Assembly (NCBI GenBank): GCA_038060895.1
Contig: JBBTCT010000021.1
Location: 36,370-94,368, forward strand
Length of the DNA: 57,999 bases
Reading direction: 5' to 3'
Source: Planctomycetota bacterium
Lineage (GTDB): Bacteria > Planctomycetota > MHYJ01 > WSZJ01
Under the pieces are notes generated by a model that saw only the letters and a program-made list of their open reading frames with translations, did no database searches and was not told the origin of the DNA. The position numbers were made by a program, and so were the translations under genes. Shown here in pieces: positions 5,298 through 44,252 of this stretch (the stretch's first letter is position 1; the number at the start of each line of letters is the position of its first letter).

Positions 5298-5579
5298 ATG
5301 AGACTTGCCTATATCGCCTTTTCCTTGCTATTGACGCTGGTGGCCGCGATCCCGGGATATAGCTGACCCCCTCCCAATGCCCCCCTTTACGAAGGGGGCA
5401 GTGCGGGCAGCGGTCCGCTGCCTGGTATGGACGGCATGAAGCCCGAGAGCCCGAAGCAAGGTGAGCCTCCCCCCAAGGGCTCCAGGCAGGAACCCGTTCC
5501 CGGCGGCGAAACGCCAACAAGTGAGGAATCCACCCAGCCAGCGCAGGAAGAAGTGGCGACGGAAGAAGTAGCCATGTAG
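5298..5579 (+). CDS. Small secreted low-complexity protein with in-frame TGA (codon 23); candidate recoded gene or pseudogene
   Basis: TAAGGAG RBS; signal peptide MRLAYIAFSLLLTLVAAIPGYS, then TGA 5364-5366; frame stays open 70 more codons to TAG 5577-5579; hairpin at 5378-5400. Confidence 0.45.
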
Positions 5580-6176
5580 TGCGGAGGTCCAATTCGCGAA
5601 CGACGATTCGTACGGCGCACCCTGAATGAAACCGAACCGGCACGCCAAGTGTGGGGAAAATTTGTACCGACGAACGCCCTCAGCGGTGGCGACGACCGAA
5701 CAGCCGATTGACCTAATGCGCTACCACGCGTAAGGGACTGGGATATGTGTGGATTCGCTTCCGGGGCCTTCACGGCATCCCTCTCGAAGCGAGCAGGGGG
5801 TCAGCTTCTCGGCTTGCTCGCCTCCTTCCCGGCGCGCAATCTTTCTTGGTAGAGGCGACTAACGGGCTCGGCGCGACATTCCAAGCGAGGCTCGGCTTAC
5901 TCAAGCTCTGAGGAATGCGGAAAAACACCATGAGCCGACACGTGCAGGTTTGTCCGTAGTTCGTATCCGCATTCATCATCGCCCATCGCGGAGGGGGGTG
6001 GATGGAAGCGAGGGCTCCGGCGGCAGGAGGCACGGCCCGGCGCGCGGGTGGGTCTCTGGTGAGGGAGGGGTTCAACGCACCGGGCCGCGCCCCCCGCCTC
6101 CTCCGCCTTCGCTTCCACCCAACCCCCCCCGCGATCGAAGTGCGAAGGACGGAGATCTGCTGCCTGGGGGTACCAG

Positions 6177-7217
6177 TTAGTAAACCGGCCCCGTGCTCTC
6201 GACCTTGCCGTCCCTCGAGATCTTCATCAGCCGGCACGCCGAAGTCACACCCCAGAACCCGCCGTCCGCCGCGGGCGCGAATCCCGCCCAGTACTCCGGC
6301 CACCCGGGAAGGCGGTCGACCTCGAACTTCACCGCGGTGCCGCCGTCCAGCGTGCAGATCGCGCCCGATCTCAACCCGCCGCCAATCGCCAACTTTCCGT
6401 CGGCGGACCACCCGCGCCCGTAGTTGTAGCTCGTCGTCACTTCAAAAATCGTCACGTCTCCCTTGGGCGTGATCCGCGCGCACACGTCGTCGTACGTCAC
6501 GATCCAGGCGAAGTCGCCCGCCGACATCACTCCGACCCTGCCGCGCGCTGAGAAAAATGTCTTCGCTTCCGCGAGCACCTTGCCCGACGGCGCCTCGAGC
6601 CATTTCACCGTCGCCGCCTGCGCGTCGTTCTTCTGGATCCATTCCTTCCGCGGCGCGCCTTTCAGTTCCTTCGGGATCGCGGCGTACTCGGCCTTCGGCT
6701 CCGCCTTGTCCTCGGCCGACTCCATAAGCACCACGGCCTTCGTCCCCGCCGAGTCGAGCCCGATCGACCCGATCCGGCCTTCGACCGCGGTCTTGCCTTT
6801 CTCGGCGCCGTCCGTCATCGACAGGAAACGGACCCCTTTCTCCTTCGCTGAAACCGCGAGCAGGAGATCCGCCGCGGGCGCGAACGCGCAATCCCCGGCG
6901 TCGGCGACCTTCTGGACTTCCTTCCACGTGGAAGTGTCAAAGATGTGGAGGACCTCGTCGTCGTCCTCGAGGCAGAGGCGCGAGCCGTCCTTCGAAAATG
7001 ACAGCGCGCCGACGCGCGACTGGATCCAGATCCGCTGTTTGACTTCGCGCGTCGCGGCGTCGAGGACGTAGAGCACGCGGTTTTCGCCGCCGCAGACGAC
7101 GGTCTTGCCGTCCGGGCTCGCGGCCACGGCGCCCAGGCCGCCCCACTCAGGATCGCGGGCGGCGGAGAGGGAAGCGCAGGCAGCGACGAGGGCGAGCGAG
7201 ACGAGAGTGCGGCGCAT
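6177..7217 (-). CDS. Secreted WD40/YVTN-like beta-propeller protein
   Basis: Signal peptide; repeats SPDGK, FSKDGS, WSADGK. Confidence 0.8.
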   Translation of the reverse strand: MRRTLVSLALVAACASLSAARDPEWGGLGAVAASPDGKTVVCGGENRVLYVLDAATREVKQRIWIQSRVGALSFSKDGSRLCLEDDDEVLHIFDTSTWKEVQKVADAGDCAFAPAADLLLAVSAKEKGVRFLSMTDGAEKGKTAVEGRIGSIGLDSAGTKAVVLMESAEDKAEPKAEYAAIPKELKGAPRKEWIQKNDAQAATVKWLEAPSGKVLAEAKTFFSARGRVGVMSAGDFAWIVTYDDVCARITPKGDVTIFEVTTSYNYGRGWSADGKLAIGGGLRSGAICTLDGGTAVKFEVDRLPGWPEYWAGFAPAADGGFWGVTSACRLMKISRDGKVESTGPVY

Positions 7218-7268
7218 GGCGAATCTCCGGAGAATTGGAATGCCGGAGGCTATTCCGCGAACGGCCGC

Positions 7269-8129
7269 TTAGCAATCGTTGCGCAGAAGTTCGAGCTCGA
7301 GGCGCGCTTCCCGCTCCGTCGCCGGGTTCTGGGCATTGAGGACCGCGCGTTCCGCGAGGCGGAGGAGGATGGCTTTGCTGGCGAGAATTCTCTCAGCGTT
7401 GCCCAGGCGGTCGCGCGCCGAATCGAGGGCGCGAAGGAGGCGAAGGGCCCGCCAGGCGTGTTCTTCGAGCGAGTCGTCGTTGCGGCGTAAAGAGGCCGAA
7501 TAACCGCCGTCCGCGACGCGTTCGGCCATCTGTAGCGATTCGTCGAACAGCTCCGGTTCTTCGGGGCGAACGACGCGCATCCACGCTTCGAACGCCTGCG
7601 AATCCGCGCTCCGCGCCAGGGAGTACCGGGCTCTTTCGCGAATGACGGCATTCTGGTCGCGCGCCGCGGCTGCTTCGAGGGAACTGATCGCCGAGGCCCG
7701 ATAAGTCGCGTGCTCGTCGTCCATGCGCGCGATGTCCGCGAGGTCGAGGATGGCCCGCATGCGGGTGAGCGGATCGCCCGAGCCAGCACGGTCGAGGAGG
7801 AGCCGGAAACTGCCCTCGTCCAGAGGGCCGAAACCGGCTCTTCAGCCCATCGCTACGCCGCGAAGGCGGTCTTCAAGGGACCTCTGCGGTGGCGGGGGGA
7901 CAGGGACCGGTTCGACGGGTTTGACCACGGAGACTTCGATCTCGAACGGTCCGGCATCTCCAATCTGCGGAGGATCTTCCGGCCTCGCCGTCGCGGACTC
8001 TTCGATTTGCGCAGGAGTCTCGACGGCCGGCGAGCGGCGAAGCGCGACGACAGGTGCCGCGGCGCTGGAAGCGCAAAGCAGGGCCAGCAGGATGACTTTC
8101 CTCGCCTTTCCGCTCTCTTCGCCGCGCAT
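7269..8129 (-). CDS. Exported helical (HEAT-like) protein with in-frame TGA (codon 96), candidate selenoprotein, 286 aa
   Basis: ORFs 7842-8252 and 7269-7760 share a frame and are separated only by TGA 7844-7842 (VAMG-U-RAGFGPLDEG); two-stem hairpin follows; N-terminal hydrophobic segment and Pro-rich linker. Confidence 0.65.
7800..7841 (-). promoter_or_regulatory. Candidate bacterial SECIS element
   Basis: mRNA: UGA A GAGCCGG UUUCG GCCCUC UGGAC GAGGGC AGUUU CCGGCUC, i.e. 7-bp lower stem, internal loop, 6-bp upper stem, G-containing apical loop at +20 to +24. Confidence 0.65.
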
Positions 8130-8485
8130 GGCACCTGTCTCCGGCACTTGGGTTCTGCCACCTGAGTGACCGACAGTGCTCGGTTCAATACCGCAAATTT
8201 GGATTTGTGTGGCAGGGAATGGCGAATTCATGAGGCTGGAGCAGTTCCGCAAGTGAGTAGACTATGTCCGGTCGCGGTAAGGGATCGGAGACGATGCCGG
8301 ATATTGGTGAAGTGCTCGGGCAGAACGCAATCGGCGGGACCGAAAAGAAGCCGATTTCCCACGATGCCGCGGCATTGGGAAAGTGAGGGCTCCTGACCCT
8401 CGAATACGCAGCCAGTCTGGCGCGGACCGGTGTTTCTCGCGACTACGTCGCCCGGGCGCTCCTTGCGCGGGGCCTCGATCCGGAA

Positions 8486-8734
8486 GTGACGCGAGAGATC
8501 GTTCAGCATTCGTTCCAGCTGGCGAGCGACAGGGCATCCCGCAAAGCTTCCTCCGTCAGGCTTGTGGGCTTTGGACTGATCCTTGCGGGCGCCGTCACGG
8601 CCGTGGCCGCAGCGGCAGGAGCCTCTGGGCCTGCCCTGAAGCACCACACCGGAACCGGCCTCAGCCTGATCAGCTTCGGGATCGCCACTTGTGTGATCGG
8701 CTTGCGCCGCTTTTGGAGCCCGCGACCTGGCTAG
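8486..8734 (+). CDS. Small membrane protein (two hydrophobic segments)
   Basis: 82-aa ORF with two TM-like stretches in an intergenic gap. Confidence 0.45.
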   Translation: MTREIVQHSFQLASDRASRKASSVRLVGFGLILAGAVTAVAAAAGASGPALKHHTGTGLSLISFGIATCVIGLRRFWSPRPG

Positions 8735-8737
8735 ATC

Positions 8738-10822
8738 TCATTTCCCGGCGTTCTTGTCCGCGATCGCCTGCACGTAGCTCTTCCCGTTCGCCGCGAATTC
8801 CGCGAGCTGTTTCAGCTCGTCGTCGGTCAACGCGCGATCCCAGATGGCCAGCTCGTCCATCGCGCCTGCGAAGGCGGACAGTCCCTGGGCGCCCGACTGC
8901 TTCGGCCGACCTACCATTATGGCGTCCGCCTCAGGAGCGGGCTTCTCGGGAAGCGAGAACGGCGGCGCCGTCAGTTCGGGGCGGTCTGCGGGCCGGGGCG
9001 GGCGTCCGCCGGCGAGGACGAAGCCGTCGGCGAGGACGCCGTCGATCGCAACGCGCACGGAGCGGTCGCCGTCCCAGACGACCGCAACGTGATGCCAGCC
9101 CTCGAACACTCCCGGAGCTGCGGTCATCACGCCCGCTTCGACAAAGGACAGGAACGCGCCATCGCCGCCGCGCCCCGCTACCCCGCGCTCCGCATGCGCG
9201 AGACCCGCCGTGAACCCCTTCAGCTTCCGCGCATCCCCGCCGTCGTACCACACCACTGATTTCGCCTTCGCGGGCTTGAGCCAGGCGGCGACGGTGCGCT
9301 GGGGAAGAGGCATGAGCGAGAGGTAGGCGGAAGTGCCGTTGAAGACGGCGCCCTTTCCGATCCGGCCGTCGCCGGTGACGACCTGGATGGAAATGGCGAA
9401 GTATCGCGACCCCGCGACGTCCTGCCAGCCGCGGTGCGTGCCCCCGCTGGCTTCGATTTCATCTTCGGTTTCGGGCTCGAACGTGTAGCCGAGGAGGCAG
9501 CCCTGGTCGAGGGTGAAGACCTTCGGGGGCGGGACGACGACGGGATCGGGCGGCTTCGTGAGGGGATCAGGTGGTTTGGTGATGGGATCCGGCGGCTTCA
9601 CCACCGGATCCGGAGGCTTCACGACAGGGTCGGGCGGCTTCGTCCCGGGGTCAGGCGCCGTGCCTCCGTCTGTCGAAGCGGTCTTCCGAGGAGTCACGGG
9701 AAGCTCTTCTCCCGACTTCATCATCATGCGAATCGCGAAGAAGAGCAGGAGGACGCAGCAGCCTGCGATCACGTAGACGGCTTTCTGCGTCGCGGCCGAG
9801 GGAGGCGCGCCGGGAAGCGGCGTGGTGAGATCAACGGGGCCGTCGGAGGGGACCAGCATGCTGGGACCGCCGGGAACGGCGCCCGCCACCGGCGCACGGA
9901 CCGCGCTTCCGCTCGATGCGATCACGGGGGCGCCGCCGCGCGGCGATTCGGGCGCCAGCTCGAGCGCGGGTCCGCCCTTCGCAAGGTCCGCGAGGACATC
10001 GGCCGGCGTCTGGTACCGGTCCTCAGGCTGCTTCTCGAGCATCCGCTGGATCACGCGGGCCGTCCCCTCGCTCACGTCGGGACGCGCCACGCGGATGTCG
10101 GGCGCCGGTGTGTTCATGACCTTGTTGAGAACGGCGTAGATTTCGGTGCCGGGGAACGGCGGTGACATGGCGAGGAGGTGATAGAGGGTGGCGCCCAGGC
10201 TGTAGATGTCGCCGCGGATGTCTACGTGACTGGTGTCCTGGATCTGCTCCGGGCTCATGTAGTGCGGCGTGCCCATGGTCATGTTCGCCTGGGTGATGGC
10301 TGGCGCCGACGAAGGGCCGCCGGTGCGCTTGGCGAGGCCGAGGTCCGCGAGTTTCACCTGGCCGTCTTTCGTGACCAGGATGTTGTCGGGCTTGATGTCG
10401 CGATGAACGATCCCTTTTTTCATCGCCGCCTGAAGGGCCTTGAGAATCCCTGCCGTCGCGGCGAGCGCCGACTTTTCGCTGAACGCGCCCTTGGCCTGCA
10501 GGCGTTCGCGCAGGGATCCGCCGTCGATGTACTCCTCGACGATGTAGTAGAGCCCAGTCGCCTCGTCCCGGTCCGCGTCCATGATCGAGACGACGTTCGG
10601 GTGGCGGATCGCGGCGGCCATGCGGGCTTCCCGGAGAAAGCGCTGCGCGTAATCGGGAGACTTGAGCGAGATGTCCTGCGGCAGGACCTTGACGGCGACG
10701 TCCACGTTGAGCGTCATGTGGCGCGCGAGGTAGACGGCCCCCATCCCGCCGCGGCCGAGCTCGCGGACGATTTTGCATTTGCCGACGATCGAGCCCGCAG
10801 TGAGGTTGGACATCCGCCCCAT
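8738..10822 (-). CDS. Membrane Ser/Thr protein kinase with Pro-rich repeat linker and LamG/concanavalin-A-like domain
   Basis: LGRGGMGAVY, VAVK, HRDIKPDN, DLGLAK, GTPHYMSPE; TM; KPPDPxx repeats; WHHVAVVWDG...MDELAIWDRALT. Confidence 0.93.
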   Translation of the reverse strand: MGRMSNLTAGSIVGKCKIVRELGRGGMGAVYLARHMTLNVDVAVKVLPQDISLKSPDYAQRFLREARMAAAIRHPNVVSIMDADRDEATGLYYIVEEYIDGGSLRERLQAKGAFSEKSALAATAGILKALQAAMKKGIVHRDIKPDNILVTKDGQVKLADLGLAKRTGGPSSAPAITQANMTMGTPHYMSPEQIQDTSHVDIRGDIYSLGATLYHLLAMSPPFPGTEIYAVLNKVMNTPAPDIRVARPDVSEGTARVIQRMLEKQPEDRYQTPADVLADLAKGGPALELAPESPRGGAPVIASSGSAVRAPVAGAVPGGPSMLVPSDGPVDLTTPLPGAPPSAATQKAVYVIAGCCVLLLFFAIRMMMKSGEELPVTPRKTASTDGGTAPDPGTKPPDPVVKPPDPVVKPPDPITKPPDPLTKPPDPVVVPPPKVFTLDQGCLLGYTFEPETEDEIEASGGTHRGWQDVAGSRYFAISIQVVTGDGRIGKGAVFNGTSAYLSLMPLPQRTVAAWLKPAKAKSVVWYDGGDARKLKGFTAGLAHAERGVAGRGGDGAFLSFVEAGVMTAAPGVFEGWHHVAVVWDGDRSVRVAIDGVLADGFVLAGGRPPRPADRPELTAPPFSLPEKPAPEADAIMVGRPKQSGAQGLSAFAGAMDELAIWDRALTDDELKQLAEFAANGKSYVQAIADKNAGK

Positions 10823-10858
10823 TGTATGTCCCCGGAGTTGCGGGCGAAGTGCGTCTCG

Positions 10859-13870: not shown

Positions 13871-13920
13871 GGAGACAGGAAATGCGCGGGTTTCGGCGGG
13901 GAAAAAGGCCAGGACAACCC

Positions 13921-27524: not shown

Positions 27525-30500
27525 TTCCTCTCCTTGACGACGATCCGGCGCGGACTGGACACGCCGTTGTTGTCGGGCGCATAGTATTCGTACACGCCGC
27601 TCGCCGGGGACTGGGCGACGATGGGGAAGCGCGGGCGGAGGTCGTAGGCGACGCGGATCGGGGCGCCGGGGGCGACCTTGCCGAAGTAAAGCGTGATCTG
27701 GCGGCCGGTGAGCGAGTACTTGTCTATCGCGCCGGATTCCTTCAGCCGCTCGAAAGCGGACGGGTCCGGCTCGAAACCGGGCGGGATGCCGAGGTCTGCG
27801 ATCACCATCGACGTCTCGCGGCCGCGAAGGGTCAGGCTCGCCGTCGCGTGAAGGACGCCGTCGAGGTCGATCTCCTGCTTGTCGTAGGCGACTTCGATGG
27901 AAAGGGGAGGGGCCTCGGGGCGAGGAGCGAGATGCCACGGGAGATAGAAGCGCCCCGCGACCTGGTACGACGCCGACAGCTCGCCGTCCGATTCCAGCTC
28001 GATCGTGTTCTCACCCTCCTCGACGGGGATCTCCGCCTGCTGGTACAGGTCAAACGTCTCCCCGTTGATCCCGCGGAACGCGCCGAGGATCTCCTTCCCA
28101 TTCACGCGCAGCTTCACGTGCACCGGTCGCTCCGGCTTTTTCGCCGCTCCGCCGTCTTCCAGCAACGCTTTGATCGCCAGAATCGTCGCCTGCGTCGAGC
28201 CCCAGTCGCCGTGCGGCTGCCGGTTCTTCGACAACCACGCCAGCGCTTCCGCCGCCCGCGGCGACCGCGTCCGCCCGCACGCCAGCGCCGCCAGCGCCGT
28301 CGCTTCGATCGCTGCCGTGTTGCCTCTCGCGCCGCAGAGCCCGTCCTGCGCCGTCCCCCAATGCGTCAGCGCCCCTTCGCGCACCGCCGATTTCTCGAGC
28401 GGAGCGACATCCGAAGCCCTTCCCAGCGCCAGCGCCACGAGTCCCTGCACGTACGGATCGGAAGCTTCCGCCGCGTGAGACGCGACCCAGGCCGTGCCTC
28501 GCTGGACTTCCGGGTCGTTGAGGCCGGCCTCGCGAAGCGCCCACACGACGTACGCCGTCATCGGAAGCCGCCCGTTGCCGAGCTGCCCCCACGTGTGCAT
28601 CCCGAGGTCGAGCGACCAGCCGCCGTCCTTGTCCTGCCGCGAATACAGCACCCGCTTCGCCCGAGCCACGACGTCCGGGTCCACGTCGCGCACCTTCGCC
28701 ATGTCCGTGAACAGGAGGATTCCGTACGCCGTCAGGATCGTCTTCGCCGGCGCCCGGCCGTACCAGTCGAACCCGCCGCCGCTCACTTCAAAGGTCAGCA
28801 GCCGCTGGTAGCCCGCGTTCAGCGCTTCGTCGAGCTTCATCTGCCATTCAGGGGTCAACTGACCCGTCTTCCGGAGGTAGGCCATCACGAGAACGTTCGG
28901 ATAGGCCACGCTCGAGGTCTGCTCGAATCAGCCATACGGCAGCCGCACGAGGCCTTCAAGGCCGCCGACGACTTCGGAGAAGCGGCTCGGGTAGAGGCGG
29001 ACCCAGGCGCGGGAAGCGCCGTCGACGGCGTCCGAGGGGATCGTGACTTTCGTGGAAGCGCGGTCGCGCAGGACGTCGTTGGCGGAGAGCGGCATCTCGC
29101 GGCCGTCCGGCACGACGTCGATCGCGCGGCGGATCGCGTCGGCAAACTCCGGCGACGTCGCGGTCACTTTCAGTTTGTGCCGTCCGAACTCGCGCGCCTT
29201 CACGTGGAAGTACACCGAGCGCACGTCGTTGGCGGCGATGGTCAGCGTCTTCTTCGCGTCGTCCTTGATCTCGAACCCGCTCTCGGCTTCGAACTCCAGC
29301 ACCACGCGCTGCTCCCGCTCGAGGTAGTTGTACACCGCGACCGGGATCCACACTTCGTCCCCCTGCGTCAGCGCCACCGGCAGGTCGATATCTGCAAAGA
29401 ATGGTTGGAACACCCGCAACGGCGCGTCCATCGCCCCCAGCCGCCCGCCCCGATCCACCGCCGACATCCCCATCCGCCACGTCGTGATCGAGTCCGCGCC
29501 GGGAAAGCGCAGCGTCGCGCGGCCCTCGTTGTCGGTGACGATCTCGGGGTTCCAGTAGAGGGTTTCGGGGAAGTATTCGCGGAGGCGGGGGGCGTTGGGT
29601 GTAGACGGCCCGACTTTGGACTCAGTCTTGAAGGCCACATCGACCACGTTCGGAGATGCGGCGCCACTCGCCGGCTTGGCGGATTCCCTCGCGGACAGGA
29701 CTCCGTCGAAACTGCGCCCCCTCGTGCTAGACAGGGAAGGCAGCAACAGGCCGGCGAAGATCACAATGAGGATGAGGCCCACCACGAGCGCCCCCAGCCA
29801 GGCATGTTCTTCCTTCGTGGTCTGGAGGACCGTCTGGATGACGACATAGATCAGGCCGCCCAGGATGGTCAGGACCAGCGTCAGCGCCCTGACCGCGTCG
29901 AGGGCGCCGTCCGAATCCGGCAAGAGCACCAGGAGCACGATCGTGCCGGCGAGCAGGGACAGCCAGATCCGTGTGTACTGCATTGCGAACCCGATCAACC
30001 TGAACACCCAAACAAGGACGATCAGTGCAGCGGTCCATGCCAGGACCGCCTGGGTGCCTGCCACCTCGCTTCGGCGCCACCGCGCGAACCGCTCGAGCTT
30101 GAGGTGCCATTCGTTGCTGGCGAACTGCTGTGCCGCGGGTTTTTCCGCGATCGCCACTCGCGCCGGTGACGGATCGTCGGATGCGAGCGCGCCCGCAGGC
30201 TTGAGCTGGAAACGCGGCTTGAGCAGCTCTTCCTGGATCGCGAAGTACGTCGCTTCGAGCCCCGGGCGCGCGTCGTTGAGCGCAAACACCGCTTCATCGA
30301 CCACCGACACGCTCAGCGCGGACGGCGCGGGCATCCCGTCCGGCCCGAACACCTGTACTTCCGCCGTCATTTCGTCCCCCGGCTTGAACGGCTCCGGGCG
30401 GATTGCGGGGCGGATCTCGAGGCCCTTGGCGGGCATGACGACGATCGGGCGCGAGTCGCGCCAGATGTGGCCGTCCTCGCGGACGCGGTAGACGGCGACG

Positions 30501-32202: not shown

Positions 32203-32466
32203 TTAAGACCGGCGCGAACGGGCAAAGGCGTAAAACACGGTGAACACCAAGGCCAGGACCAGCAGGCACGGCACCGACCAGTTCTGGACCTCATCGGAGT
32301 TCGGGAACTCCCTCAGGAGTCGGCGTCCGGTTCGGGACACCGATGCGAAGAGGCCGCTCCGCGGCCCTCCACTGCGGGCTAACCCTCAGGTGTAATGCAC
32401 CGAAACGGGGACATGGATTGCCGTTCCCGCAGAACCGGCCGCGCGAGCGACCACAAGAGGCGTCAT
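32203..32466 (-). CDS. Small single-TM protein with in-frame TGA (codon 27), 87 aa, missed by the ORF track
   Basis: GGAAGGAG RBS and ATGA overlap; MTPLVV...VHYT-TGA-GLARSGG...SDEVQNWSVPCLLVLALVFTVFYAFARSRRS-TAA, ending just before the macroglobulin RBS; GGCCGC-GGA-GCGGCC hairpin at 32350-32369. Confidence 0.6.
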
Positions 32467-32720
32467 GATCGCGGCTCCTTCCACGCAACCTGGCCGGAGG
32501 GGCGCGGCTTGTGGAAGACCCACCAGGCCGCGAGCGAGAGCAGAAGCGCGATTCCCCCCAGGATCGCGACCTCTTCCGATCTCAGGCCGAAGTGTGAGCG
32601 TCCGCCGGGACAGCAGGGACGCAGCTGCGAAGTGCCGCACTTCACAGGCGCGGCCGTGTGCTTCACGAGCTTGCCGTCGACGATCCTGTCCTGGCACCAC
32701 GCCATCGGTTCACATCTCAT
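32463..32720 (-). CDS. Small Cys-rich single-TM protein
   Basis: ATGA overlaps at both ends; KCG and CC motifs; SEEV followed by a TM helix. Confidence 0.65.
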   Translation of the reverse strand: MRCEPMAWCQDRIVDGKLVKHTAAPVKCGTSQLRPCCPGGRSHFGLRSEEVAILGGIALLLSLAAWWVFHKPRPSGQVAWKEPRS

Positions 32721-33229
32721 GCGGGTTCTGCTCCCATTCTCTCGGTCACCATCTTCCGGACGCGGTGCAGCTTCTCGCCCACCGACGCCGCGGTCATGCC
32801 CAGGACTTCGCCGATCTCCGCGTAGCTCATCTGCTCCACGAATCTCAGCAGCACGAGCTGCCGGTAGTCCTCGCGCAGGCCGTCGACGATCCGCACGACC
32901 CGTTCGATCAGGTCGTCGGGCTTCTTTTCCGCCACCGGGGCCGCCACGTCCACCAGCTCCTCCGCTTTGTGCCGCTTCTCGCGCCGCAGCCAGTCGATGG
33001 CCGCGTTACGGGTCAGCGTGTACAGCCAGGTTTTCGCCTTCGACGGATCCCGCAGAGTCCCCAGCGCCTTCCACGCCCGCAGGAACGCTTCCTGCGTGAC
33101 GTCGTCGGCGGCGGACGGACTTCGGACCCAGGACAGGGCGAGGGCTCGCACCATCCGTTCGTGTGACTTCACGAAGGTGTCGAAATCCAGGGCCACGGTT
33201 CGGGTGGGAGCGCCTTGTTCCGGGTTCAA
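32717..33229 (-). CDS. ECF sigma-70 factor
   Basis: ADDVTQEAFLRAW, KTWLYTLTRN, region 4 LRFVEQMSYAEIGEVLG. Confidence 0.93.
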   Translation of the reverse strand: MNPEQGAPTRTVALDFDTFVKSHERMVRALALSWVRSPSAADDVTQEAFLRAWKALGTLRDPSKAKTWLYTLTRNAAIDWLRREKRHKAEELVDVAAPVAEKKPDDLIERVVRIVDGLREDYRQLVLLRFVEQMSYAEIGEVLGMTAASVGEKLHRVRKMVTERMGAEPA

Positions 33230-34408: not shown

Positions 34409-35620
34409 ATGCGAAATACGCGGATGCTGTGGATTCTCGGTCTTGCGGCGGGGGCAGCCATGACTCCGGCCCTCGCAGAGGACCCGCCCAGGGGCGCCGA
34501 GTTCACGGCTCCAGTGCGCCTGAAGGCCGCCGGTGAGTTCGTCCGGACCGAGGAGCCGGGCTACGCGGCGCCCTGCTGGGCCGACGCGGACGGCGACGGC
34601 AGGAAGGACCTGATCGTCGGCCAGTTCTCCGGGGGCAAAATGAAGGTCTATCGAAACCTCGGCGAAGGCAAGCTCGCGGAGGGGCGCTGGCTCGAGGCCG
34701 AGGGCAAGGTAGCCGAGGTGCCGGGGGTCTGGTGATGCACGAGCGCGACTCCACAGTTCGTGGATCTCAACGGTGACGGCAAGGTCGACATTCTTTCAGG
34801 CTCGTACTCGCGCGATGAAGGGGACATGGCGGGCCTGTTCCAGGTGTTGTGGGGAGTCGAGGGCGGGGGCTTCAAAGCGCCTGCGGTCCTCAACGGCACC
34901 GACGGCCAGCCCCTGATCATCGCGGACGACGACGACATTCCCAGGATCTGCACCCGGCCGACGGCGGTGGACCTCAACGGCGACGGCAAGCTGGACATCG
35001 TCTCGGGCAATTTCGCCGGCACGTTCGCGTTCTTCCCCGGCGAGGGCGAGGGCCGGTTCGCGCCGAAACACACGCTGCTGACCGGCGCCGACGGCGCTTC
35101 GCTCAACGTGGACGACCACAGCGATCCGTTCTTCGTCGACTGGGACGGCGACGGCGACCTCGACTTGCTCAGCGGGTCCGCTTCCGGCGGCGTGTCCCTG
35201 TTCGTCAATCTCGGCTCGAAGAAGGAAGCGAAGTTCGGCAAGCCGGTGGCACTGGTGCCGGCCGTCGAGAACGAGCCTTCCGGCGCCCGCATGGGCGATG
35301 AATGGCTGAAGGGGCCACAGTCGGATACCCGCGTCTGGGCCGACGACCTCAACGGCGACGGCAAGCTTGACCTCCTGATCGGAGACTCGGTCACGCTGGT
35401 GTACCCGGCGGCCGGGCTTGAAGTGGCGCAGGCTCGGGAGAAGCTCGCCGAGTGGTCGGCCAGAATGGAAAAGGCGGGAGCCGCGCTCCGCGCGGGCGGA
35501 GGGCCCACGGCAGAGGACAAGAAAAAGTACCAGGAGGAGTGGCAGAAGCTCCGGAAAGAGCGCGAGACGATCGTGCGCGAGGACTCGACCGGATTCGTCT
35601 GGGTGATGTACCGGAAGTAG
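34409..35620 (+). CDS. Secreted FG-GAP/VCBS repeat protein with in-frame TGA (codon 109, W-U-C), 403 aa
   Basis: ORFs 34409-34735 and 34760-35620 share a frame: VPGVW-TGA-CTSATPQFVDLNGDGKVD. DxxGDGxxDL repeats lie on both sides; hairpin TCCAC-AGTTC-GTGGA at 34750-34764. Confidence 0.82.
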
Positions 35621-35660
35621 GCGACTGAGCGCGCGAGAAACAGTCGTCCTGCGGCGCGCG

Positions 35661-35831: not shown

Positions 35832-35917
35832 TAGAAGTGCGCCTCGGAGTGACCCCAGCGCGCGAACGCGAAGACGAGGGCGGCGAAGACGGCGGGGATG
35901 GCGAGCAGGACGAGCAT
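35828..35917 (-). CDS. Possible 29-aa hydrophobic small protein
   Basis: MLVLLAIPAVFAALVFAFARWGHSEAHFY with GAGG upstream and GC-rich third positions. Confidence 0.3.
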   Translation of the reverse strand: MLVLLAIPAVFAALVFAFARWGHSEAHFY

Positions 35918-36038
35918 GAGTGGCCTCTGAAATGTCGTACTGCCGCCATCATGGGAAGCGGGAACCGGGCCGTCAATAGTAAGTTGATCACATTACTCAT
36001 GATTCCGCTCCTTTCCCCCCGTGCTCGCTCCGGTTCCA

Positions 36039-37190: not shown

Positions 37191-37253
37191 GGGGTCGTAT
37201 CCGCGGAAACAGCCGCGGATACGGCGTCCTCCGGTCGCGCGCCCGCTCGATCC

Positions 37254-38267
37254 ATGCGAGAATCCCGCCCCGTGAAGGTCCTCTTCCTCATCCAGGGCGT
37301 CAACCAGCCCGCTTCCCGCTACCGCGTGAACCAGTTCCTCGAGTTCCTCCGCGCGGACGGGATCGAGTTCGAGACCCGCGACTACCCGCGTTCCATCCCG
37401 GCCTGGATCGGCGTCCTCCGCATGCGCCGCAAGGTCGATGTCGTCTTCTTCCAGAAAAAACGCGCCCCGCGCTGGCCCGTCATGCGCCTCCGCGCCGGCG
37501 GCGCCCGCGTCGTCTACGACGTCGACGACGCCGTCATGTTCGCCTCCAGCCGGCACGAGTCGCCGGAAGCGCCCGCGCGCATGAAGCGCTTCGCGACGAT
37601 GTGCTCCTCCAGCGACGCCGTGACGGCGGGGAACCGGTATCTTGCGGAGATGGCCCTCAAGCACTGCCCGAACGTGTCCGTCGTCCCGACGTGCATGGAC
37701 ATGCGCAAGTACGCGCCGCGCGGGCCGGCCGCGAACGGAAGCCGCGTCGTCCTCGGCTGGATCGGAGGGCGAAAATCGCTGCCGTTCCTGAAAGAGCTGG
37801 ACCCGGCGCTCGCGCTGCTGAAGGGAATGGGCGTGGATGCCACGCTCAAAGTCGTGTGCAACGAGTTCCCCTCGGACTGCCCCGTCCCGGTCGAAAAAAA
37901 AACATGGGTCGAGGCCGAAGAGGCCGCCGACGTCGCTTCCTTCGACATCGGCCTCGCGCCGCTTCCGGACGACCCCTGGAGCCGCGGCAAGTGCGCGACG
38001 AAATTGCTCCAGTGCATGGCGGCGCGCGTCCCCTGCGTCGCCGCGCCGGTGGGGGCGCACTGCGACATCGTGAAGGAAGGGGAGAACGGGTTCCTCGCCT
38101 CAAAGCCGGCCGAGTGGGCGGAGAAAATCGCGCGGCTGGCGAAGGATCCGGCGCTTCGCGACCGCCTCGGCGAGGCGGCCCGCGAAACTGTTGCGAAGGA
38201 GTACTCGGTGCAGGCCCACGCGCCCCGGCTCGCCGCCCTGCTTAAGTCACTGGCGAGGAGGGCCTGA
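37254..38267 (+). CDS. Glycosyltransferase family 4
   Basis: ASRYRV, YDVDDAV, FDIGLAPL, GKCATKLLQ, IVKEGENGFL. Confidence 0.9.
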   Translation: MRESRPVKVLFLIQGVNQPASRYRVNQFLEFLRADGIEFETRDYPRSIPAWIGVLRMRRKVDVVFFQKKRAPRWPVMRLRAGGARVVYDVDDAVMFASSRHESPEAPARMKRFATMCSSSDAVTAGNRYLAEMALKHCPNVSVVPTCMDMRKYAPRGPAANGSRVVLGWIGGRKSLPFLKELDPALALLKGMGVDATLKVVCNEFPSDCPVPVEKKTWVEAEEAADVASFDIGLAPLPDDPWSRGKCATKLLQCMAARVPCVAAPVGAHCDIVKEGENGFLASKPAEWAEKIARLAKDPALRDRLGEAARETVAKEYSVQAHAPRLAALLKSLARRA

Positions 38268-38270
38268 GCT

Positions 38271-38945: not shown

Positions 38946-38990
38946 TGGGGCCGGCGGGCTTACCGAGGTGGTTGGCGAAAGGACGGAGGA

Positions 38991-39062
38991 GGTAGTGGGT
39001 AGGGGGTAGTAGGCAGGAATGCCTTCTGTAGCAACGGTCGTTTCTACCCTCTACCCACTACC
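38991..39062. repeat. Inverted repeat (GGTAG units, 18/19 match) between convergent genes
   Basis: GGTAGTGGGTAGGGGGTAG 38991-39009 versus CTACCCTCTACCCACTACC 39044-39062. Confidence 0.7.
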
Positions 39063-39107
39063 AACTTCCTTCTTTCCTCGACCACCAAAGTAATTCCCGA
39101 CTCCTCC

Positions 39108-42100
39108 CTAATTCGCCGTCTCGAATTCCTGCACGAACGCAGACCAGCCGTCCGTGTCGCGCAGGCGATGGAATCCCCAGTCCATGCGCACGGCGCCGAG
39201 TCGCCTCATGCCGTGGTCCCGGCAGATCCGCAGGTACGCCTTGGAGCCCTCGAAGTCCGCCTTCTCGGCGCAGATGCGGGCGCGGCGATAGGAGATCGCC
39301 CAGTCGTAGGAGGCCGGCTCCGGGAGCGTCTTGATGGCCTCGAGCGCCTGGTCCCACTTTTCGGCTTTCTCGTACATGTCGCCGGCGACCCAGTGGAGCG
39401 TGAAGATCGATGCCTCGTATTGCTTCTTGCGGTCTTCGCCCGAGACGCTGATCAGGATTTTCATCAGGCCGATGACCTGTTCGGCGAACTGCGCGATCCT
39501 GCCGGGTTCGGTGACGCCTTCGACCTGCTTCTCGAGGGCTTTGCGGGTGTTCTCGAACATCTTCCGCGCGGTCGGGGACATGTCGCCCAGCGCGACGGCG
39601 TCAAACATGTCTTTGATTCCGTCCTGGTAGAGCCCGGCCTGGAGCCGCGTGCGGCCGCGCGCCCAGAGGTACAGCCCGAACCCCGGGTCCGCCGCAAGCG
39701 CCTTGTCGAAACAGGCGATCGCGTCGGTGCTCTTGCCGATCGTGCGCAGGAAAATTCCCATCTGGAACCAGAGATCGTAATCCTCGGGATCCGCTTCGAG
39801 CGACTTGCGCCCCCACGCCTCAGCGGCCTCACCGTCGCCGATCAGCGACCCCGCCATGAACAGTCCTTCCAGCGCGTTCGCGTCCGAAGGATCCATCGTC
39901 ACCGCGGTGGTCAGGTCGCGGACCGCCAGTTCCAGCCTCTCGAACATGAGGTGCACCATCCCGCGCTCCCGATAGGTCCACGCCGCGTTCGGCGCGAGCT
40001 CGACCGCCTTGTCCAGGTGCGGCATCGCGTCTGAGTAGTTCGTCTGCAGGCCGGCAAGCGAAGCGCGCAGAAGCGGGTCAAAGGGAAGCGCCTTCGCCAG
40101 GTCGGCGTAGGCGACGCGGGCGTCCTTGTAGTTGGCGACTTCAACCAGGGCCTCTGCCCGCGCTCGCACCGCTTCGACCAGGTACGGATCCGCCTGGAGC
40201 GCCTTCGCGTAGGCCAGAAGCGCATCCGCAGGCCGGCCGTCGAGCTGCGCGAGGATCCCCTCGGCGTAGCGAGCCTGCGCTTCCGCCAGCCCGGCCTTCG
40301 CGAGTTTCTGGAGGTCCTCGGCGACCTGGGCGCGCATCTCAGCGGCCTTCGGGTCGCGTCGCAGAACGACGCGGCGCCGGCCCTGTCCGCCGAGGGAGAG
40401 GAACCCCGAGTAATCGACGACGGAGACCTGGCCCTTTGCGGAGCGGTAGAGGTCGAGGGAGGCGAGCACCTTGTCGTAGAGCGCGGGCCCGTCGTCGGGG
40501 CGCAGGGCGAGAGCGCGGTCGGATTCGACGACGGCCTCGACGACGTTGCCGCCGAGCCGGAGTGCGCGCGCGCGCAGCCGGCGGGCCTCGAAGTTCTTCG
40601 GGTCCTCGAGCAGCGCCGCATCCAGCTCGGCAAGCGCGTGATCCAGCGGTTCCCGGCTCGCCGACTGTCCGACGATCGCCACGACATCCGGCCGCATCGA
40701 GCGCTCCGCCTTTTCCAGCGACTGGCGTCCCTTGTGGACGTGTTCCTCCACGCTTCTGCGCTTCGCCGCTCGTGCCATCTCCTCGCCTTCGAGTCGCAGG
40801 CGTTCGCGAGCCTTGTCGTTCTTCTCGCGCACCAGCTTCGCAGTGAGAAAGGAGCCGGCCACGAGAAGCGCGACGGCGGCGATGCCGAGGACCGACACGA
40901 GGCGGTTCTTGAGGGCTTTGCGCACGAGGCGCACCGTCCACGGGATCGGGCGGGCAAGGATCGGGTCGCCCTTGAGGAAGCGGTCGAGGTCGTCCGCGAG
41001 GGCGGCGGCGGATTCGTAGCGGTCCTCGGGGCGCTTGGAGAGGGCCTTGAGGCAGATGACTTCGAGGTCGCGCGGAATTCCCGCCACGAGGGTCGAGGGC
41101 GGGACCGGATCGACGCCCGTGACTTTCCGGAGGATCTCGATGTTGCCCGCTCCCTCGAAGGGCGCCTTGCGCGTAAGTCCCTCGTAGAGGACCGTCCCGA
41201 GGCCGTAGACGTCGCTGCGTTCGTTGACCTGGTCGAGTTTCCCCTCGGCCTGCTCCGGGCTCATGTAGGCCGGCGTGCCGAGGATCTGGCCGGCGACGCT
41301 GACGCTCGAGCCGGCGCCGACTTCCTTCGCGAGGCCGAAGTCGGTGAGAAGCGGCCGCTTCGTGAGGTCGATCAGCACGTTGGCGGGCTTGAGGTCGCGG
41401 TGGACGATTCCCTCGGCGTGGGCCTGCGCAAGCCCCCGGGCCACCGCTTCCACGACCTCCGCCACGCGCCGCGGCGGCGCCTTGTCCACGTGGATCTCGC
41501 GATCGAAGGCCTGCCCTTCGATGTACTCCATCGTGAAATAAAAAACCCCGTTTTCCTCGCCGACGTCGTGTACCTGCACGAGGTTCGGGTGCTTGCCCAT
41601 CCGCGCCGCGGCCCGCGCTTCGCGGAGGAAGCGCTCGACGTGCTCTTCCGAGCCGGTCGCCAGCAGGGTCTTCAGCGCGACGACGCGGTCGAGTCCCGGG
41701 TGGCGCGCCTTGTAGACGACGCCCATTCCGCCGCGGCCGAGCTCGTCGATGATCTCGTACTTGCCGACGCGGTCGAGGCGGCCGAGGCGGCGAGGGAGGG
41801 AAGGGGAGCTCGGCGAGACGGCGGTGCGTCCTGCGGGTTCGGAGTGTGCCGAGAGGATCGTCGGGGTGCTTGAAGCAGGGCGCGTGTTCCGCGCGACCTT
41901 GGTGGCCGCGTCCGAAAATGGCGGGCGGGCCGCCATCGTTTCCGCGCTCGAGGACGGCGGACGGGGTGCGCCCGGTGCCGCCGCGGCGACCGAGCTCCTC
42001 GCGGCCGCTTCCAGCGACGCCAGCACGTCCGGAGGCGTGCCGCTTCGCAGCAGCGCGTCGCGAAGCGGGACATTCTCGGCTGCCGCGGCCGCGACGGCAG

Positions 42101-42179
42101 ACTCCAGCGTCGCGGCGGGGAGAAGTCCGCTGGCCGCGACCAGGCGGGCAAGGACCATATCCGTGGGGCTGAGCGGCAT
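39108..42179 (-). CDS. Ser/Thr protein kinase with TM and TPR repeats
   Basis: LGRGGMGVVY, HRDLKPAN, DFGLAK, GTPAYMSPE; TPR array. Confidence 0.93.
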   Translation of the reverse strand: MPLSPTDMVLARLVAASGLLPAATLESAVAAAAAENVPLRDALLRSGTPPDVLASLEAAARSSVAAAAPGAPRPPSSSAETMAARPPFSDAATKVARNTRPASSTPTILSAHSEPAGRTAVSPSSPSLPRRLGRLDRVGKYEIIDELGRGGMGVVYKARHPGLDRVVALKTLLATGSEEHVERFLREARAAARMGKHPNLVQVHDVGEENGVFYFTMEYIEGQAFDREIHVDKAPPRRVAEVVEAVARGLAQAHAEGIVHRDLKPANVLIDLTKRPLLTDFGLAKEVGAGSSVSVAGQILGTPAYMSPEQAEGKLDQVNERSDVYGLGTVLYEGLTRKAPFEGAGNIEILRKVTGVDPVPPSTLVAGIPRDLEVICLKALSKRPEDRYESAAALADDLDRFLKGDPILARPIPWTVRLVRKALKNRLVSVLGIAAVALLVAGSFLTAKLVREKNDKARERLRLEGEEMARAAKRRSVEEHVHKGRQSLEKAERSMRPDVVAIVGQSASREPLDHALAELDAALLEDPKNFEARRLRARALRLGGNVVEAVVESDRALALRPDDGPALYDKVLASLDLYRSAKGQVSVVDYSGFLSLGGQGRRRVVLRRDPKAAEMRAQVAEDLQKLAKAGLAEAQARYAEGILAQLDGRPADALLAYAKALQADPYLVEAVRARAEALVEVANYKDARVAYADLAKALPFDPLLRASLAGLQTNYSDAMPHLDKAVELAPNAAWTYRERGMVHLMFERLELAVRDLTTAVTMDPSDANALEGLFMAGSLIGDGEAAEAWGRKSLEADPEDYDLWFQMGIFLRTIGKSTDAIACFDKALAADPGFGLYLWARGRTRLQAGLYQDGIKDMFDAVALGDMSPTARKMFENTRKALEKQVEGVTEPGRIAQFAEQVIGLMKILISVSGEDRKKQYEASIFTLHWVAGDMYEKAEKWDQALEAIKTLPEPASYDWAISYRRARICAEKADFEGSKAYLRICRDHGMRRLGAVRMDWGFHRLRDTDGWSAFVQEFETAN

Positions 42180-42219
42180 GAGCGGCGCGGCATTGTACGA
42201 CGCCTTCGACCGGGGTCGC

Positions 42220-42969
42220 CTACTCCACGAATCTCAGCGGGCCGGAGGGGGGGGCGAGCTGAAGCGCCGCGGCGTGGCGCCAGAAAAGCTCCGCTCCGCG
42301 GCGCTCCTCGGGGCCGAAGTCAAACCGGATCGCCTCGCGAAGGTAATGCCGGCAGAGCTCGCGGCGCAGGCCGAGGCGCGGGGCCTCGGCATCGGCGATG
42401 TCGTCGCGACGCGCCAGGCCGGCGCGCGCCGACTCCTGGAGGGCGGTTGCGAGGCCGGGCAGCGGCTCGATCGTTACCCACGCCGCGAACACGAAGGGCA
42501 ACCCCGTCCACAGGAACCATTCGGCGGCGAGGTCGACTTCGTCGGAGACCGTTCCGAGAGCGCGGAGCGCGGCGTCGCCGATGAGCAACCGGCCGTCCGG
42601 GCGCTCGCCCCGAAGCGGCGGCGGAAGCGCGCGGTTCCATTTCAGTCCCGCGAGGATCTCGAAGAGCGCGTTGGACGTGTGCGATGCGGGGTCGCGCGCG
42701 ATCGACTGCGCCTGGGCCAGCGGCCGGTCGAGGAAGAGCCGGACCGAAAGCACCTCGCCCCGCGCCCCGATCGCCACCCCCGGGACGAGCCGTGCTCCCG
42801 GCGTGCGGAATGCGTCGATGACCGGCAGCAGCGCCGCTTCAAACTCCCCCCGCGCGAACCTCTCAGCCAGCTCTGCCGGCGGCGCTTCGCGCACCTCGAA
42901 CTCCGCCGGGATTGCGGCGAGAAGCGGGCGTGCATTCAGATAGGGGACGGATCCGAGGATGCGCGGCAT
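42220..42969 (-). CDS. mqnA: Chorismate dehydratase, futalosine menaquinone pathway
   Basis: GSVPYLNARPL, G.V.SV, SHTS, LLIGDAAL, DL..EW..WTGLPFVFAAW. Confidence 0.88.
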   Translation of the reverse strand: MPRILGSVPYLNARPLLAAIPAEFEVREAPPAELAERFARGEFEAALLPVIDAFRTPGARLVPGVAIGARGEVLSVRLFLDRPLAQAQSIARDPASHTSNALFEILAGLKWNRALPPPLRGERPDGRLLIGDAALRALGTVSDEVDLAAEWFLWTGLPFVFAAWVTIEPLPGLATALQESARAGLARRDDIADAEAPRLGLRRELCRHYLREAIRFDFGPEERRGAELFWRHAAALQLAPPSGPLRFVE

Positions 42970-43048
42970 GGGCTCATTATGAGTCGGGCAAGTCAGAAGG
43001 GGAATTGCGCGGCATAATGCGCGATCCCGCATTCAACGGAGCTCGCCC

Positions 43049-43648
43049 GTGGACGCCATGTTTCTTCCCGAGGTTGAAAAGGCGACACCCGGCGGCCTGC
43101 GGGGTCTCGAGATCAAGGCGGCGAAGGCCGTCGGCCTCCCCATCCCGCAGATTCTCCATCTCTTCGCGTTCAAACCGGACCGGACGAAATTCCTCATGGA
43201 TTTTACGCAGGCGGTGATGCGCGGCCCTTCACCGCTCACGGCGGGACAGCGCGAGCTGATCGCCGCGTTTGTCTCGCGTAAAAACGACTGCCGCTTCTGA
43301 ATCGGCTCCCACGCCGCGGTCGCGGCCGAGCTGCTCGGAAGGGAGTACGTCGATGCGATCCTGCGCGACTGGCATACGGCGCCGATTTCGGATCATGAGA
43401 GGAGGCTCTGGGCGCTCGTCGAAAAGGCCGGCACGGAATCGCACAAGGTCACTCGCGAGGACGTCGATGCGGCGCGCGTTTCAGGCTGGAGCGACGAGTC
43501 GATTCACGACGCGCTGACGGTGGTGTCGCTCTTCAAGTTCTACAACACCTGGATCGACTCGACCGGGGTTCACGACCTGCCGGCGATCGCGTACGGAATG
43601 CTGGGCAAGCGGATGGCGGAGAAAGGCTACGTGCCCCTCGATGCCTGA
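43049..43648 (+). CDS. AhpD-like/carboxymuconolactone decarboxylase family protein with CxxU motif, 199 aa
   Basis: RELIAAFVSRKNDCRF-TGA(43298-43300)-IGSHAAV; frame continues to TGA 43646-43648 with GWSDE..D...FKFYNTW; hairpin GCCGC-GGTC-GCGGC at 43313-43326. Confidence 0.9.
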
Positions 43649-44252
43649 CCGCCCCCAGGAGCCGATGTTCCTGCCCGACCTCGAGTCGAAGCCGGTCACC
43701 GGTGAGCGGGGGGAAATGCTCCGTGCGATGAAGGAATCGGGCCAGCACGTTCCCCAGATCTACTATCTGTTCAACTTCAAGCCCGACCGCAGCCGCCTGC
43801 TCGCGAGTTTCACGGAGGGCGTCATGCGCGGGCCGTCGCCGCTGGATTCCGGGATGCGCGAACTCATCGCAGCCTATACCTCCCGCCTCAACCGCTGCCT
43901 CTACTGAGACCGTTCCCACGCCGCGGGCGCGGCGGAGTTGACGCGGGACGCGAAACGCGTCGAAGAGATCCTCCGGGACCCGGAAGGATCAGCGATTGCG
44001 GAGAAGGAAAAGGCGCTTCTCCGATTCGTGAAGAAGGCCGCGACGGAGTCGGCGAAGATGACGGCGGCGGATGCCGCGGCCGCGCGTGCGGCAGGGTGGA
44101 CGGATGAAGCGCTCTACGATGCGGCGACGGTCGTCGCGCTGTTCCGCTTCTACAATACGTGGTGCGATTCGGCAGGAGTTCACGCGATGCCGGAAGAAGC
44201 ACACGCGTTGTCGGGGAAGCGGATCGCCGGGTCGGGGTACGGTTGGAAGTAG
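43641..44252 (+). CDS. Second AhpD-like protein with CxxU motif, 203 aa
   Basis: RELIAAYTSRLNRCLY-TGA(43905-43907)-DRSHAAG in frame with ORF 43938-44252; hairpin GCCGC-GGGC-GCGGC at 43920-43933. Confidence 0.9.

Follow-up and report, generated by a model that had tools for sequence, protein, structure and literature searches.

In-frame UGA codons and a predicted large selenoproteome in a Planctomycetota bacterium, with a candidate selenocysteine at the thioester position of an alpha-2-macroglobulin

We analyzed a window of 57,999 nucleotides (nt; about 66% G+C) from the 5.42-Mb draft genome of a Planctomycetota bacterium (assembly GCA_038060895.1, contig JBBTCT010000021.1; G000:C21:36370-94368 in our notation, where G000 is this genome and C a contig). 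An earlier reading of the window from its letters alone (the sequence-only reading) had noticed seven in-frame TGA codons, mostly in proteins that it took to be exported and non-redox. All seven triplets are where it placed them, at 5364(+), 7844(-), 28930(-), 32388(-), 34733(+), 43298(+) and 43905(+). Six of them lie inside open reading frames (ORFs) that continue past the TGA, and the one at 32388 is in non-coding DNA. The observation was thus confirmed for six of the seven sites, for five of these strongly: 7844, 28930, 34733, 43298 and 43905 are well supported as predicted selenocysteine (Sec, U) codons. Very probably, the in-frame UGAs are mostly genuine Sec codons, and the genome carries one of the largest known bacterial selenoprotein sets, including an alpha-2-macroglobulin with Sec at its thioester position. 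The observations behind this are conservation of the TGA, pairing of Cys with TGA in alignments, compensatory changes in hairpins, the presence of the Sec machinery and a genome-wide enrichment. From these we infer selenium insertion at the predicted codons.

Predicted selenocysteine sites in the window

The gene with the TGA at 28930 encodes an alpha-2-macroglobulin-type protein. It contains the Pfam domains MG2, MG3, A2M_BRD, A2M, TED_complement (1.3e-37) and A2M_recep, all above their cut-offs, and its best solved relatives are CD109 (4.5e-41), human alpha-2-macroglobulin and A2ML1. When aligned with CD109, its 'PYG-U-FEQ' stands against 'PYG-C-GEQ', with U opposite the thioester Cys. The CxEQ motif of its thioester domain (TED) reads U-F-E-Q, with invariant Glu and Gln and with TGA where the family has Cys.

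This TGA was conserved across species. Among 41 related genomes, exactly one TGA was found in all 29 matches with E <= 1.1e-81, and none was found in most of the weaker matches. The TGA was in G-U-F-E-Q in 17 of 17 extracted loci, and three distant loci read G-C-x-E-Q with TGC or TGT. The column was kept at 35-89% identity across species (63-89% in five genomes of the same genus). When 151 genomes were sampled evenly across the phylum, one TGA was present in 17 of the 30 close matches; these TGA forms came from nine genomes of several families and were intermixed with Cys forms. As a Cys control, we used 80 public homologues from a search pattern in which U was entered as C, which returned Cys forms only. 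All 80, from many phyla and at 42-50% identity, read G-C-F-E-Q. SelA was found in five of five tested genomes with the TGA form versus one of five Cys-only genomes, these being small numbers from related genomes.

A hairpin predicted downstream of the macroglobulin TGA, resembling a selenocysteine insertion sequence (SECIS), was analyzed by comparing the two forms. In the 17 TGA forms, 90.2% of the cells of the hairpin were paired, with changes on both sides at five of nine pairs, and the hairpin exceeded both slid and shuffled controls. For the 80 Cys forms, pairing in the same columns was only 63.1% (Mann-Whitney p = 3e-8), and the mean fold energy was -14.6 kcal/mol in the TGA forms versus -5.9 kcal/mol in the Cys forms. 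Because pairing and folding are weaker in the Cys forms, the hairpin tracks the TGA rather than the peptide.

The TGA at 34733 lies in a secreted repeat protein with four stretches of FG-GAP_3 (88 bits; Pfam cut-off 26.9). FG-GAP was also matched, and a domain spans the stop. The best 11 matches in the genomes were nine loci of other genomes, the window gene itself and one paralogue in the same genome; TGA was present in nine of the ten that were not the query. The codon was kept at 36-74% identity. In a motif search, nine loci, the window gene included, had TGA in one shared column (G/W-U-C); two more FG-GAP loci with a TGA and one match without it fell outside the motif pattern. Four full-length database homologues (P0008, P0010, P0014 and P0023) read W-C-C-T-S, with C-C opposite U-C. 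Most of the 120 database matches listed were C-terminal fragments of about 265-310 amino acids that cover about 66-71% of the query, as expected if gene callers stop at the TGA. Several of the listed matches carry the name VCBS repeat protein and come from Planctomycetes or Planctomycetota metagenome-assembled genomes (MAGs). In the hairpin of this family, pair 21-29 was never broken: five sequences have G-C there and four have A-U.

The two TGAs at 43298 and 43905 lie in tandem genes for AhpD-like, peroxidase-related proteins. Their TIGR01926 scores were 95.6 and 101.2 bits, respectively (cut-off 81.8), and TGA is also found in the same column of a paralogue of the first. Each gene has a G-C stem of 5-6 bp whose loop, GGUC or GGGC, starts 17 nt past the codon. 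AhpD-like proteins of TIGR01926 are listed as CxxU selenoproteins in a table of a 2026 review (PMC13188914). The window pair, with scores above the cut-off and U in C-x-x-U, can be assigned to this known type from sequence, the tandem arrangement of the copies being the only notable difference from the listed proteins. A third CMD-family gene with an in-frame TGA is found on contig C14.

The TGA at 7844 is in an orphan protein with a hydrophobic helix at residues 12-30 and a helical, weakly HEAT-like C-terminal part. The TGA column was kept in four of four congeneric orthologues, from three congeners, at 43-59% identity; it is flanked on either side by conserved sequence ('DRLRG..G-U-....P.DE') and has no start codon nearby. 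The stem of its hairpin reads GUCCUC/GAGGAC in one orthologue, a change on both sides that keeps the pairing. A large protein database gave two matches only, both fragments. We accepted 7844 as a probable Sec codon of a genus-restricted, membrane-anchored protein, on conservation alone.

The sequence-only reading had placed these codons mostly in exported, non-redox proteins. An N-terminal signal or a membrane segment was found in four of the six real genes. Two of the sites are in a classical redox family (AhpD-like). Nor is 'non-redox' established for the FG-GAP protein, because its vicinal U-C (C-C in the Cys forms) could be redox-active, forming a selenenylsulfide, or could bind metal. Coordinates of all features are given in Table 1.

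Table 1. Genes, TGA codons and hairpins considered in the window
Feature	Coordinates	Strand	Details
Small signal-peptide protein, 93 amino acids	5298..5579	+	TGA 5364-5366, codon 23
Orphan protein, 286 amino acids	7269..8129	-	Predicted Sec codon 7842-7844, residue 96
SECIS-like hairpin of orphan gene	7812..7828	-	Stem GCCCUC/GAGGGC, loop UGGAC
Alpha-2-macroglobulin-type thioester protein, 1553 amino acids	27521..32182	-	Predicted Sec codon 28928-28930, residue 1085, G-U-F-E-Q
SECIS-like hairpin of macroglobulin gene	28880..28906	-	Columns 25-34 paired with 41-51 (RNAalifold), loop about 31 nt past codon
TGA outside any gene frame	32386..32388	-	Rejected
ECF sigma factor	32720..33229	-	Pfam Sigma70_r2, Sigma70_r4_2, Sigma70_ECF; upstream of macroglobulin gene
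Secreted FG-GAP/VCBS repeat protein, 403 amino acids	34409..35620	+	Predicted Sec codon 34733-34735, residue 109, W-U-C-T-S
SECIS-like hairpin of FG-GAP gene	34749..34765	+	Stem 5-6 bp, loop AGUUC (AGGUY in relatives)
AhpD-like/peroxidase-related protein 1	43058..43648	+	Predicted Sec codon 43298-43300, C-R-F-U; Pfam CMD
SECIS-like hairpin, AhpD-like 1	43313..43326	+	GCCGC-GGUC-GCGGC
AhpD-like/peroxidase-related protein 2, in tandem	43665..44252	+	Predicted Sec codon 43905-43907, C-L-Y-U; CMD spans stop
SECIS-like hairpin, AhpD-like 2	43919..43934	+	CGCCGC-GGGC-GCGGCG

Three other TGAs in the window were rejected. The frame of the TGA at 32388 has no coding signal (3.5 upstream, 0.07 downstream); the coding frame of this gap is another one, 32463-32720(-). 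The ORF had no counterpart in five genomes of the same genus that keep the neighboring macroglobulin gene (best E 0.004, in unrelated places). The TGA at 8384(+), in ORF 8264-8734, is probably not a Sec codon: a single homologue, in the congener genome G001, has no stop, and the residue opposite, judged by eye without an alignment, is not Cys. The TGA at 38265(+) serves as the normal terminator of a gene for a glycosyltransferase, with a RIO-like kinase gene after it.

Selenocysteine machinery and genome-wide tests

All four components of the bacterial Sec machinery (tRNA-Sec, SelA, SelB and SelD) were found in the genome. SelA is encoded at C4:24975-26063, the gene for SelD itself has one in-frame TGA, and the tRNA-Sec at C4:13533-13625 scores 71.7 bits in Rfam (gathering score 47). 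The sequence-only reading had suggested a search for paralogues of SelB, and this returned a single match to the SelB winged-helix domain. The tRNA-Sec gene, a thioredoxin-like gene with a TGA (C4:12873-13310) and the SelA gene lie within 13 kb of one another.

A search for tRNAs with a UCA anticodon, also suggested by that reading, gave two ARAGORN calls of tRNA-SeC(UCA), on C4 and C1. The former is the tRNA-Sec validated above. The latter (C1:472898-472990) has a G.G mismatch in the acceptor stem, 75% G+C and no Rfam match to tRNA or tRNA-Sec at E <= 0.1, and is probably a false call.

We infer that Sec is decoded here by the standard SelB/SECIS route. SelD would make selenophosphate, SelA would convert Ser-tRNA-Sec to Sec-tRNA-Sec, and SelB would deliver the latter to a UGA ahead of a SECIS hairpin. 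The arrangement is like that of the Escherichia coli fdhF model: SelA, SelB, SelD and tRNA-Sec are all present, TGA still stops translation elsewhere, and the hairpins follow shortly after the UGA with G-rich apical loops (GGUC, GGGC, AGGUC and UGGAC). The loop GGUC is presumably that of E. coli fdhF. The genome differs from E. coli in that its target genes are far more numerous and that many of them encode exported repeat proteins that do not look enzymatic.

TGA is also an ordinary terminator in this genome. Among 5293 confident ORF ends (those whose last 40 codons score best of the six frames), the terminator was TGA in 2476, TAG in 1975 and TAA in 842. An ordinary TGA closes the macroglobulin gene and the first AhpD-like gene, and the triplets at 4475, 17223, 48438 and 55212, named earlier as ordinary TGA stops, are indeed TGA. 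TAG is unusually common as a terminator given the 66% G+C.

The sequence-only reading had proposed to compare same-frame ORF pairs split by TGA with those split by TAA or TAG, similar numbers of which would have indicated general decay or assembly error. Pairs with a coding signal on both sides numbered 185 for TGA, 181 for TAG and 91 for TAA, or 7.5%, 9.2% and 10.8% of the respective terminators. The numbers were thus similar for all three stops. This count is misleading as a means of refutation, because it consists largely of adjacent genes separated by 0-4 codons. Genes are packed very tightly throughout the genome, and same-frame neighbors often start 0-4 codons past a stop, leaving no room for a Shine-Dalgarno spacer. 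We therefore replaced the raw count with filters for start codons, hairpins, Pfam domains and paralogues.

As hairpins vary in spacing, stem length and loop length, a fixed descriptor was applied with controls: a stem of at least 5 bp, a loop starting 15-31 nt from the U, and G[G/U] early in the loop. In the window, 7844, 34733, 43298, 43905 and 32388 passed and 5364 and 28930 failed. Some hairpin follows each of the seven TGAs, as had been reported, which proves little given that about 10% of background positions conform to the descriptor: 154 of 1471 TGA terminators, 150 of 1755 TAG/TAA terminators and 341 of 3009 random coding positions. Among the ORF pairs, 69 of the 185 with TGA conformed versus 25 of the 272 with TAG or TAA.

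The other two filters separated TGA clearly from the other stops. For the Pfam test, we took events that had no start codon within eight codons and a coding signal right after the stop, or that had a hairpin. Of the 97 TGA events, 30 had a Pfam domain that extended across the stop by at least five residues in both directions, compared with none of the 53 TAG/TAA events. A paralogue in the same genome aligned Cys or an in-frame TGA at the stop in 47 of the 185 TGA pairs, compared with 0 of 181 for TAG and 1 of 91 for TAA. The expected enrichment of TGA at Cys columns was thus found throughout the genome, and was absent for TAG and TAA. One TAG/TAA control resembled a single interrupted gene: a DUF1259/DUF1529 protein (C9:3561-4184, L249) with an in-frame TAG between the signal peptide and the domain.

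The union of the Pfam and paralogue tests is 54 TGA events, 41 of which have a hairpin (background about 10%). In the remaining 131 TGA pairs, a hairpin was found in 28 versus about 14 expected, suggesting about 20 further true Sec sites among them. The scan is blind to Sec codons within 40 codons of the preceding or the next in-frame stop and missed 7844 and 5364, so that, in a genome that is 86.5% complete, 54 is a floor.

Alternative readings of the in-frame UGA codons

Several points weigh against Sec as the general explanation. Sec insertion is a prediction from nucleotide sequence. The genome is a draft (47 contigs, 86.5% complete, 1.5% contamination), and the comparison genomes are interrelated, so the counts across them are not independent. 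The raw pair count had no excess of TGA, and enrichment appeared only after the homology and hairpin filters. The hairpin descriptor was written after the candidates had been inspected; the false site 32388 conforms to it and the macroglobulin site, whose consensus fold is weak (-3.24 kcal/mol), does not. No Cys homologue or paralogue of the orphan protein was found in the genomes or the protein database. For site 5364, no TGA orthologue or copy was found among the recovered homologues, and its fold (-18.4 kcal/mol) is like that of 15 Cys copies (mean -17.8, best -24.4), so that the hairpin does not discriminate.

Site 5364 is the ambiguous one. It lies in a small protein without a Pfam or NCBIfam match, whose family has many copies in the genus (15 distinct Cys copies were counted). 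The TGA is opposite the invariant Cys of 'FA-C-PPPPAPGYDG' in every recovered copy, from genomes of the same genus and one of the same order. A signal-peptide-like helix precedes it, and the Cys or TGA follows 'TFA' or 'GYS'. These contexts do not fit the usual lipobox pattern, L-[AS]-[GA]-C. The downstream coding score is neither clearly coding nor clearly non-coding. The site could be Sec at the first residue after the signal peptide or a nonsense mutation in a dead copy, and we consider the two almost equally probable. A VIT-domain protein (C12:64186 onward, L173:1-504) has a TGA in a similar place, right after a signal-peptide-like N-terminus ('PRTAHS-U-WVY').

Among the alternatives, the one that survives best is that the UGAs mostly terminate translation and that Sec insertion is minor or selenium-dependent, with truncated main products (for example, a macroglobulin without its thioester domain) and the UGA as a selenium-sensing switch. 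In bacteria, release factor 2 competes with Sec insertion, which often has a low efficiency, and exported proteins of up to 1553 amino acids that depend on one UGA would be costly under selenium scarcity. Macroglobulin paralogues of the all-Cys form are also kept in the genome (the match on C9, without stops). Against this, the sequence past each UGA is strongly conserved and in frame across species, which indicates selection for a full-length product, and the hairpins are conserved with compensatory changes. We regard predominant termination as improbable.

Reading of UGA as Cys, by a hairpin- and SelB-dependent system with a tRNA-Sec-like tRNA charged with Cys, was the other possibility raised by the sequence-only reading. 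Some bacteria are known to have tRNAs of the selC* type, ARAGORN made two calls with a UCA anticodon in this genome, and those supported sites that align with Cys in homologues would fit Cys insertion equally well. Only the call on C4 was confirmed, and this gene scores as a tRNA-Sec; the call on C1 is the mismatched one. SelA and SelD are present, SelD with a TGA of its own, SelB gave only one match, and SelA accompanies the macroglobulin in its TGA form. We found no support for a UGA-to-Cys system, no search for a paralogue of CysRS having been made, and judge it to be distinctly less probable than termination, and unlikely in any case.

Nonsense mutations or sequencing and assembly errors, in genes that are decaying or mis-assembled, could also put TGA in frame. 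The draft state of the genome and the one control gene with an in-frame TAG are compatible with this. So is site 5364, the sole TGA copy of an otherwise all-Cys family, where one base separates TGC or TGT from TGA. Decay would be expected to affect all three stops and random columns. The TGA column is instead kept across species in the macroglobulin, FG-GAP and orphan proteins over the identity ranges given above, and the TAG/TAA controls had no stop spanned by a Pfam domain (0 of 53) and at most one aligned with Cys or TGA (of 272). As a general account of the sites, this is very improbable indeed. A genome-wide reassignment of UGA to Trp, Gly or another standard amino acid, with which the open frames taken by themselves would agree, is practically dismissed by the 2476 confident ORFs that TGA closes, genes of the window among them, and by the residues opposite in-frame TGAs in paralogues, which are mainly TGA (108) or Cys (28), with Trp and Gly not among the eight commonest.

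Extent of the selenoproteome and a proposed role for the macroglobulin

The reading of the in-frame UGAs as mostly Sec codons agrees with the earlier suggestion of a selenoproteome of unusual size that takes in secreted and membrane proteins, in that the machinery is present and TGA, unlike TAG and TAA, is enriched at Cys/Sec columns and inside Pfam domains. In the parts of the literature consulted, the largest bacterial selenoproteomes have 57 and 63 members (PMC13188914), with a maximum of 63 in Table 2 of BSepDB (PMC13326102) and of 46 in the deep-Sep paper (PMC12013277). The present genome, with at least 54 homology-supported TGA sites, is on the scale of the record holders (the Olavius algarvensis Delta 1 symbiont, a Methylomirabilota MAG and Desulfosediminicola), with the reservation that 54 is a non-curated count and not directly comparable with published counts.

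Thioredoxin-like, AhpC/TSA, MsrA, deiodinase-like, MoeB/ThiF and DUF1223 proteins are shared with those selenoproteomes, and the families of known type, which make up many of the members in this genome, further include DsbH-like and CMD proteins. An AhpC/TSA-like gene (C15:157573-158436) apparently has two in-frame TGAs, in 'LSPN-U-QAAKGY' and 'FAFG-U-PIP'. The genome differs from the record holders in lineage, as Planctomycetota are absent from the passage of PMC13188914 on selenoprotein-rich clades, which names mainly anaerobic Thermodesulfobacteriota, Synergistota and Clostridia. The part consulted of an earlier planctomycete genome paper (PMC4807772) gives only a handful of selenoproteins. 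A second difference is that a large share of the sites here is in exported repeat proteins (macroglobulin, FG-GAP and BNR/sortilin-like).

Four families were not found in the searched literature: macroglobulin (two genes), FG-GAP with 'U-C' (two), large FG-GAP (seven) and BNR/sortilin-like (two). The seven large paralogues contain FG-GAP, are about 1100-1200 amino acids long, and all have an in-frame TGA, in 'APD[YFW]-U-T[HF]FWRQV' (the C30 copy differs), with no Cys form in the genome. Their loci are C24:198382-201759, C30:13851-17141, C36:18388-21837 and C36:36803-52511; on C36, four copies stand in tandem with a fifth nearby on the opposite strand. The BNR/sortilin-Vps10-like pair (C1:187608-188729 and C42:7230-9206) has an in-frame TGA in 'G[TQ]-U-VHK'. 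A Pfam domain spans the stop in one of the two, and paralogues have Cys at the TGA column.

Sec in alpha-2-macroglobulin or FG-GAP proteins was not reported in the selenoprotein literature searched, which excluded Haft and Tolstoy 2025 and Deng et al. 2026. The words 'macroglobulin' and 'FG-GAP' do not occur in PMC13188914, PMC12013277, PMC13326102 or one supplement of BSepDB, and full-text searches for Sec in macroglobulins returned nothing of relevance. NCBIfam release 20 gave no selenoprotein-family match for the macroglobulin, the FG-GAP protein, the orphan or the small protein. The great majority of known bacterial selenoproteins are redox enzymes. Decoding is by an ordinary mechanism; what is new is how large the selenoproteome is, the lineage and, most of all, the prediction of Sec in a thioester warhead and in repeat proteins that are exported.

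The macroglobulin has the MG2, MG3, bait-region, A2M, thioester and receptor-binding domains of the alpha-2-macroglobulin/CD109/TEP/complement C3 family. It differs from these proteins in having a predicted Sec for the thioester Cys, in a zf-HC2 anti-sigma domain fused at its N-terminus and an ECF sigma gene beside it, and in four hydrophobic helices between the bait-region and A2M domains (within residues 712-814; another such helix, at residues 68-93, would anchor the protein in the membrane). An ORF of 85 codons, 32463-32720(-), separates the two genes.

The invariance of the Glu and Gln after U suggests that the internal ester is retained in the form of a selenoester: a gamma-glutamyl selenoester would arise between Sec and the conserved Gln. 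A selenolate is more nucleophilic than a thiolate and also leaves more readily, and we propose that both the formation of the ester and its attack by a protease amine are faster for this reason. The selenoester, a more reactive acyl donor than a thioester, would trap proteases faster. As the putative extracytoplasmic part of an anti-sigma factor, the macroglobulin could trap a protease that attacks the envelope and report the attack to the ECF sigma factor; a role in sensing such attack and coupling it to release of the sigma factor is speculation. Tentatively, and at somewhat less than an even chance, we propose a clade of bacterial alpha-2-macroglobulins with a gamma-glutamyl selenoester warhead and anti-sigma-linked reporting, together with dozens of exported selenoproteins.

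For the lineage, these results suggest that the record sizes and the view of selenoprotein-rich clades in the part of PMC13188914 consulted are incomplete. Exported selenoprotein families would be mis-annotated in metagenome-assembled genomes, because ordinary gene callers split such genes. For methods, counts of same-frame ORF pairs fail where genes are very tightly spaced, and tests of domain continuity and of Cys/TGA alignment work. It is possible, though we hold it a little more doubtful than not, that Sec has spread in this lineage into dozens of exported proteins of structural and repeat type, alongside a selenoester macroglobulin and sigma signaling, and that its selenoproteome may be the largest in bacteria. 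If Sec does occupy the thioester position, it would have a new chemical role there, in acyl transfer through a more reactive acyl-donor bond instead of in redox chemistry.

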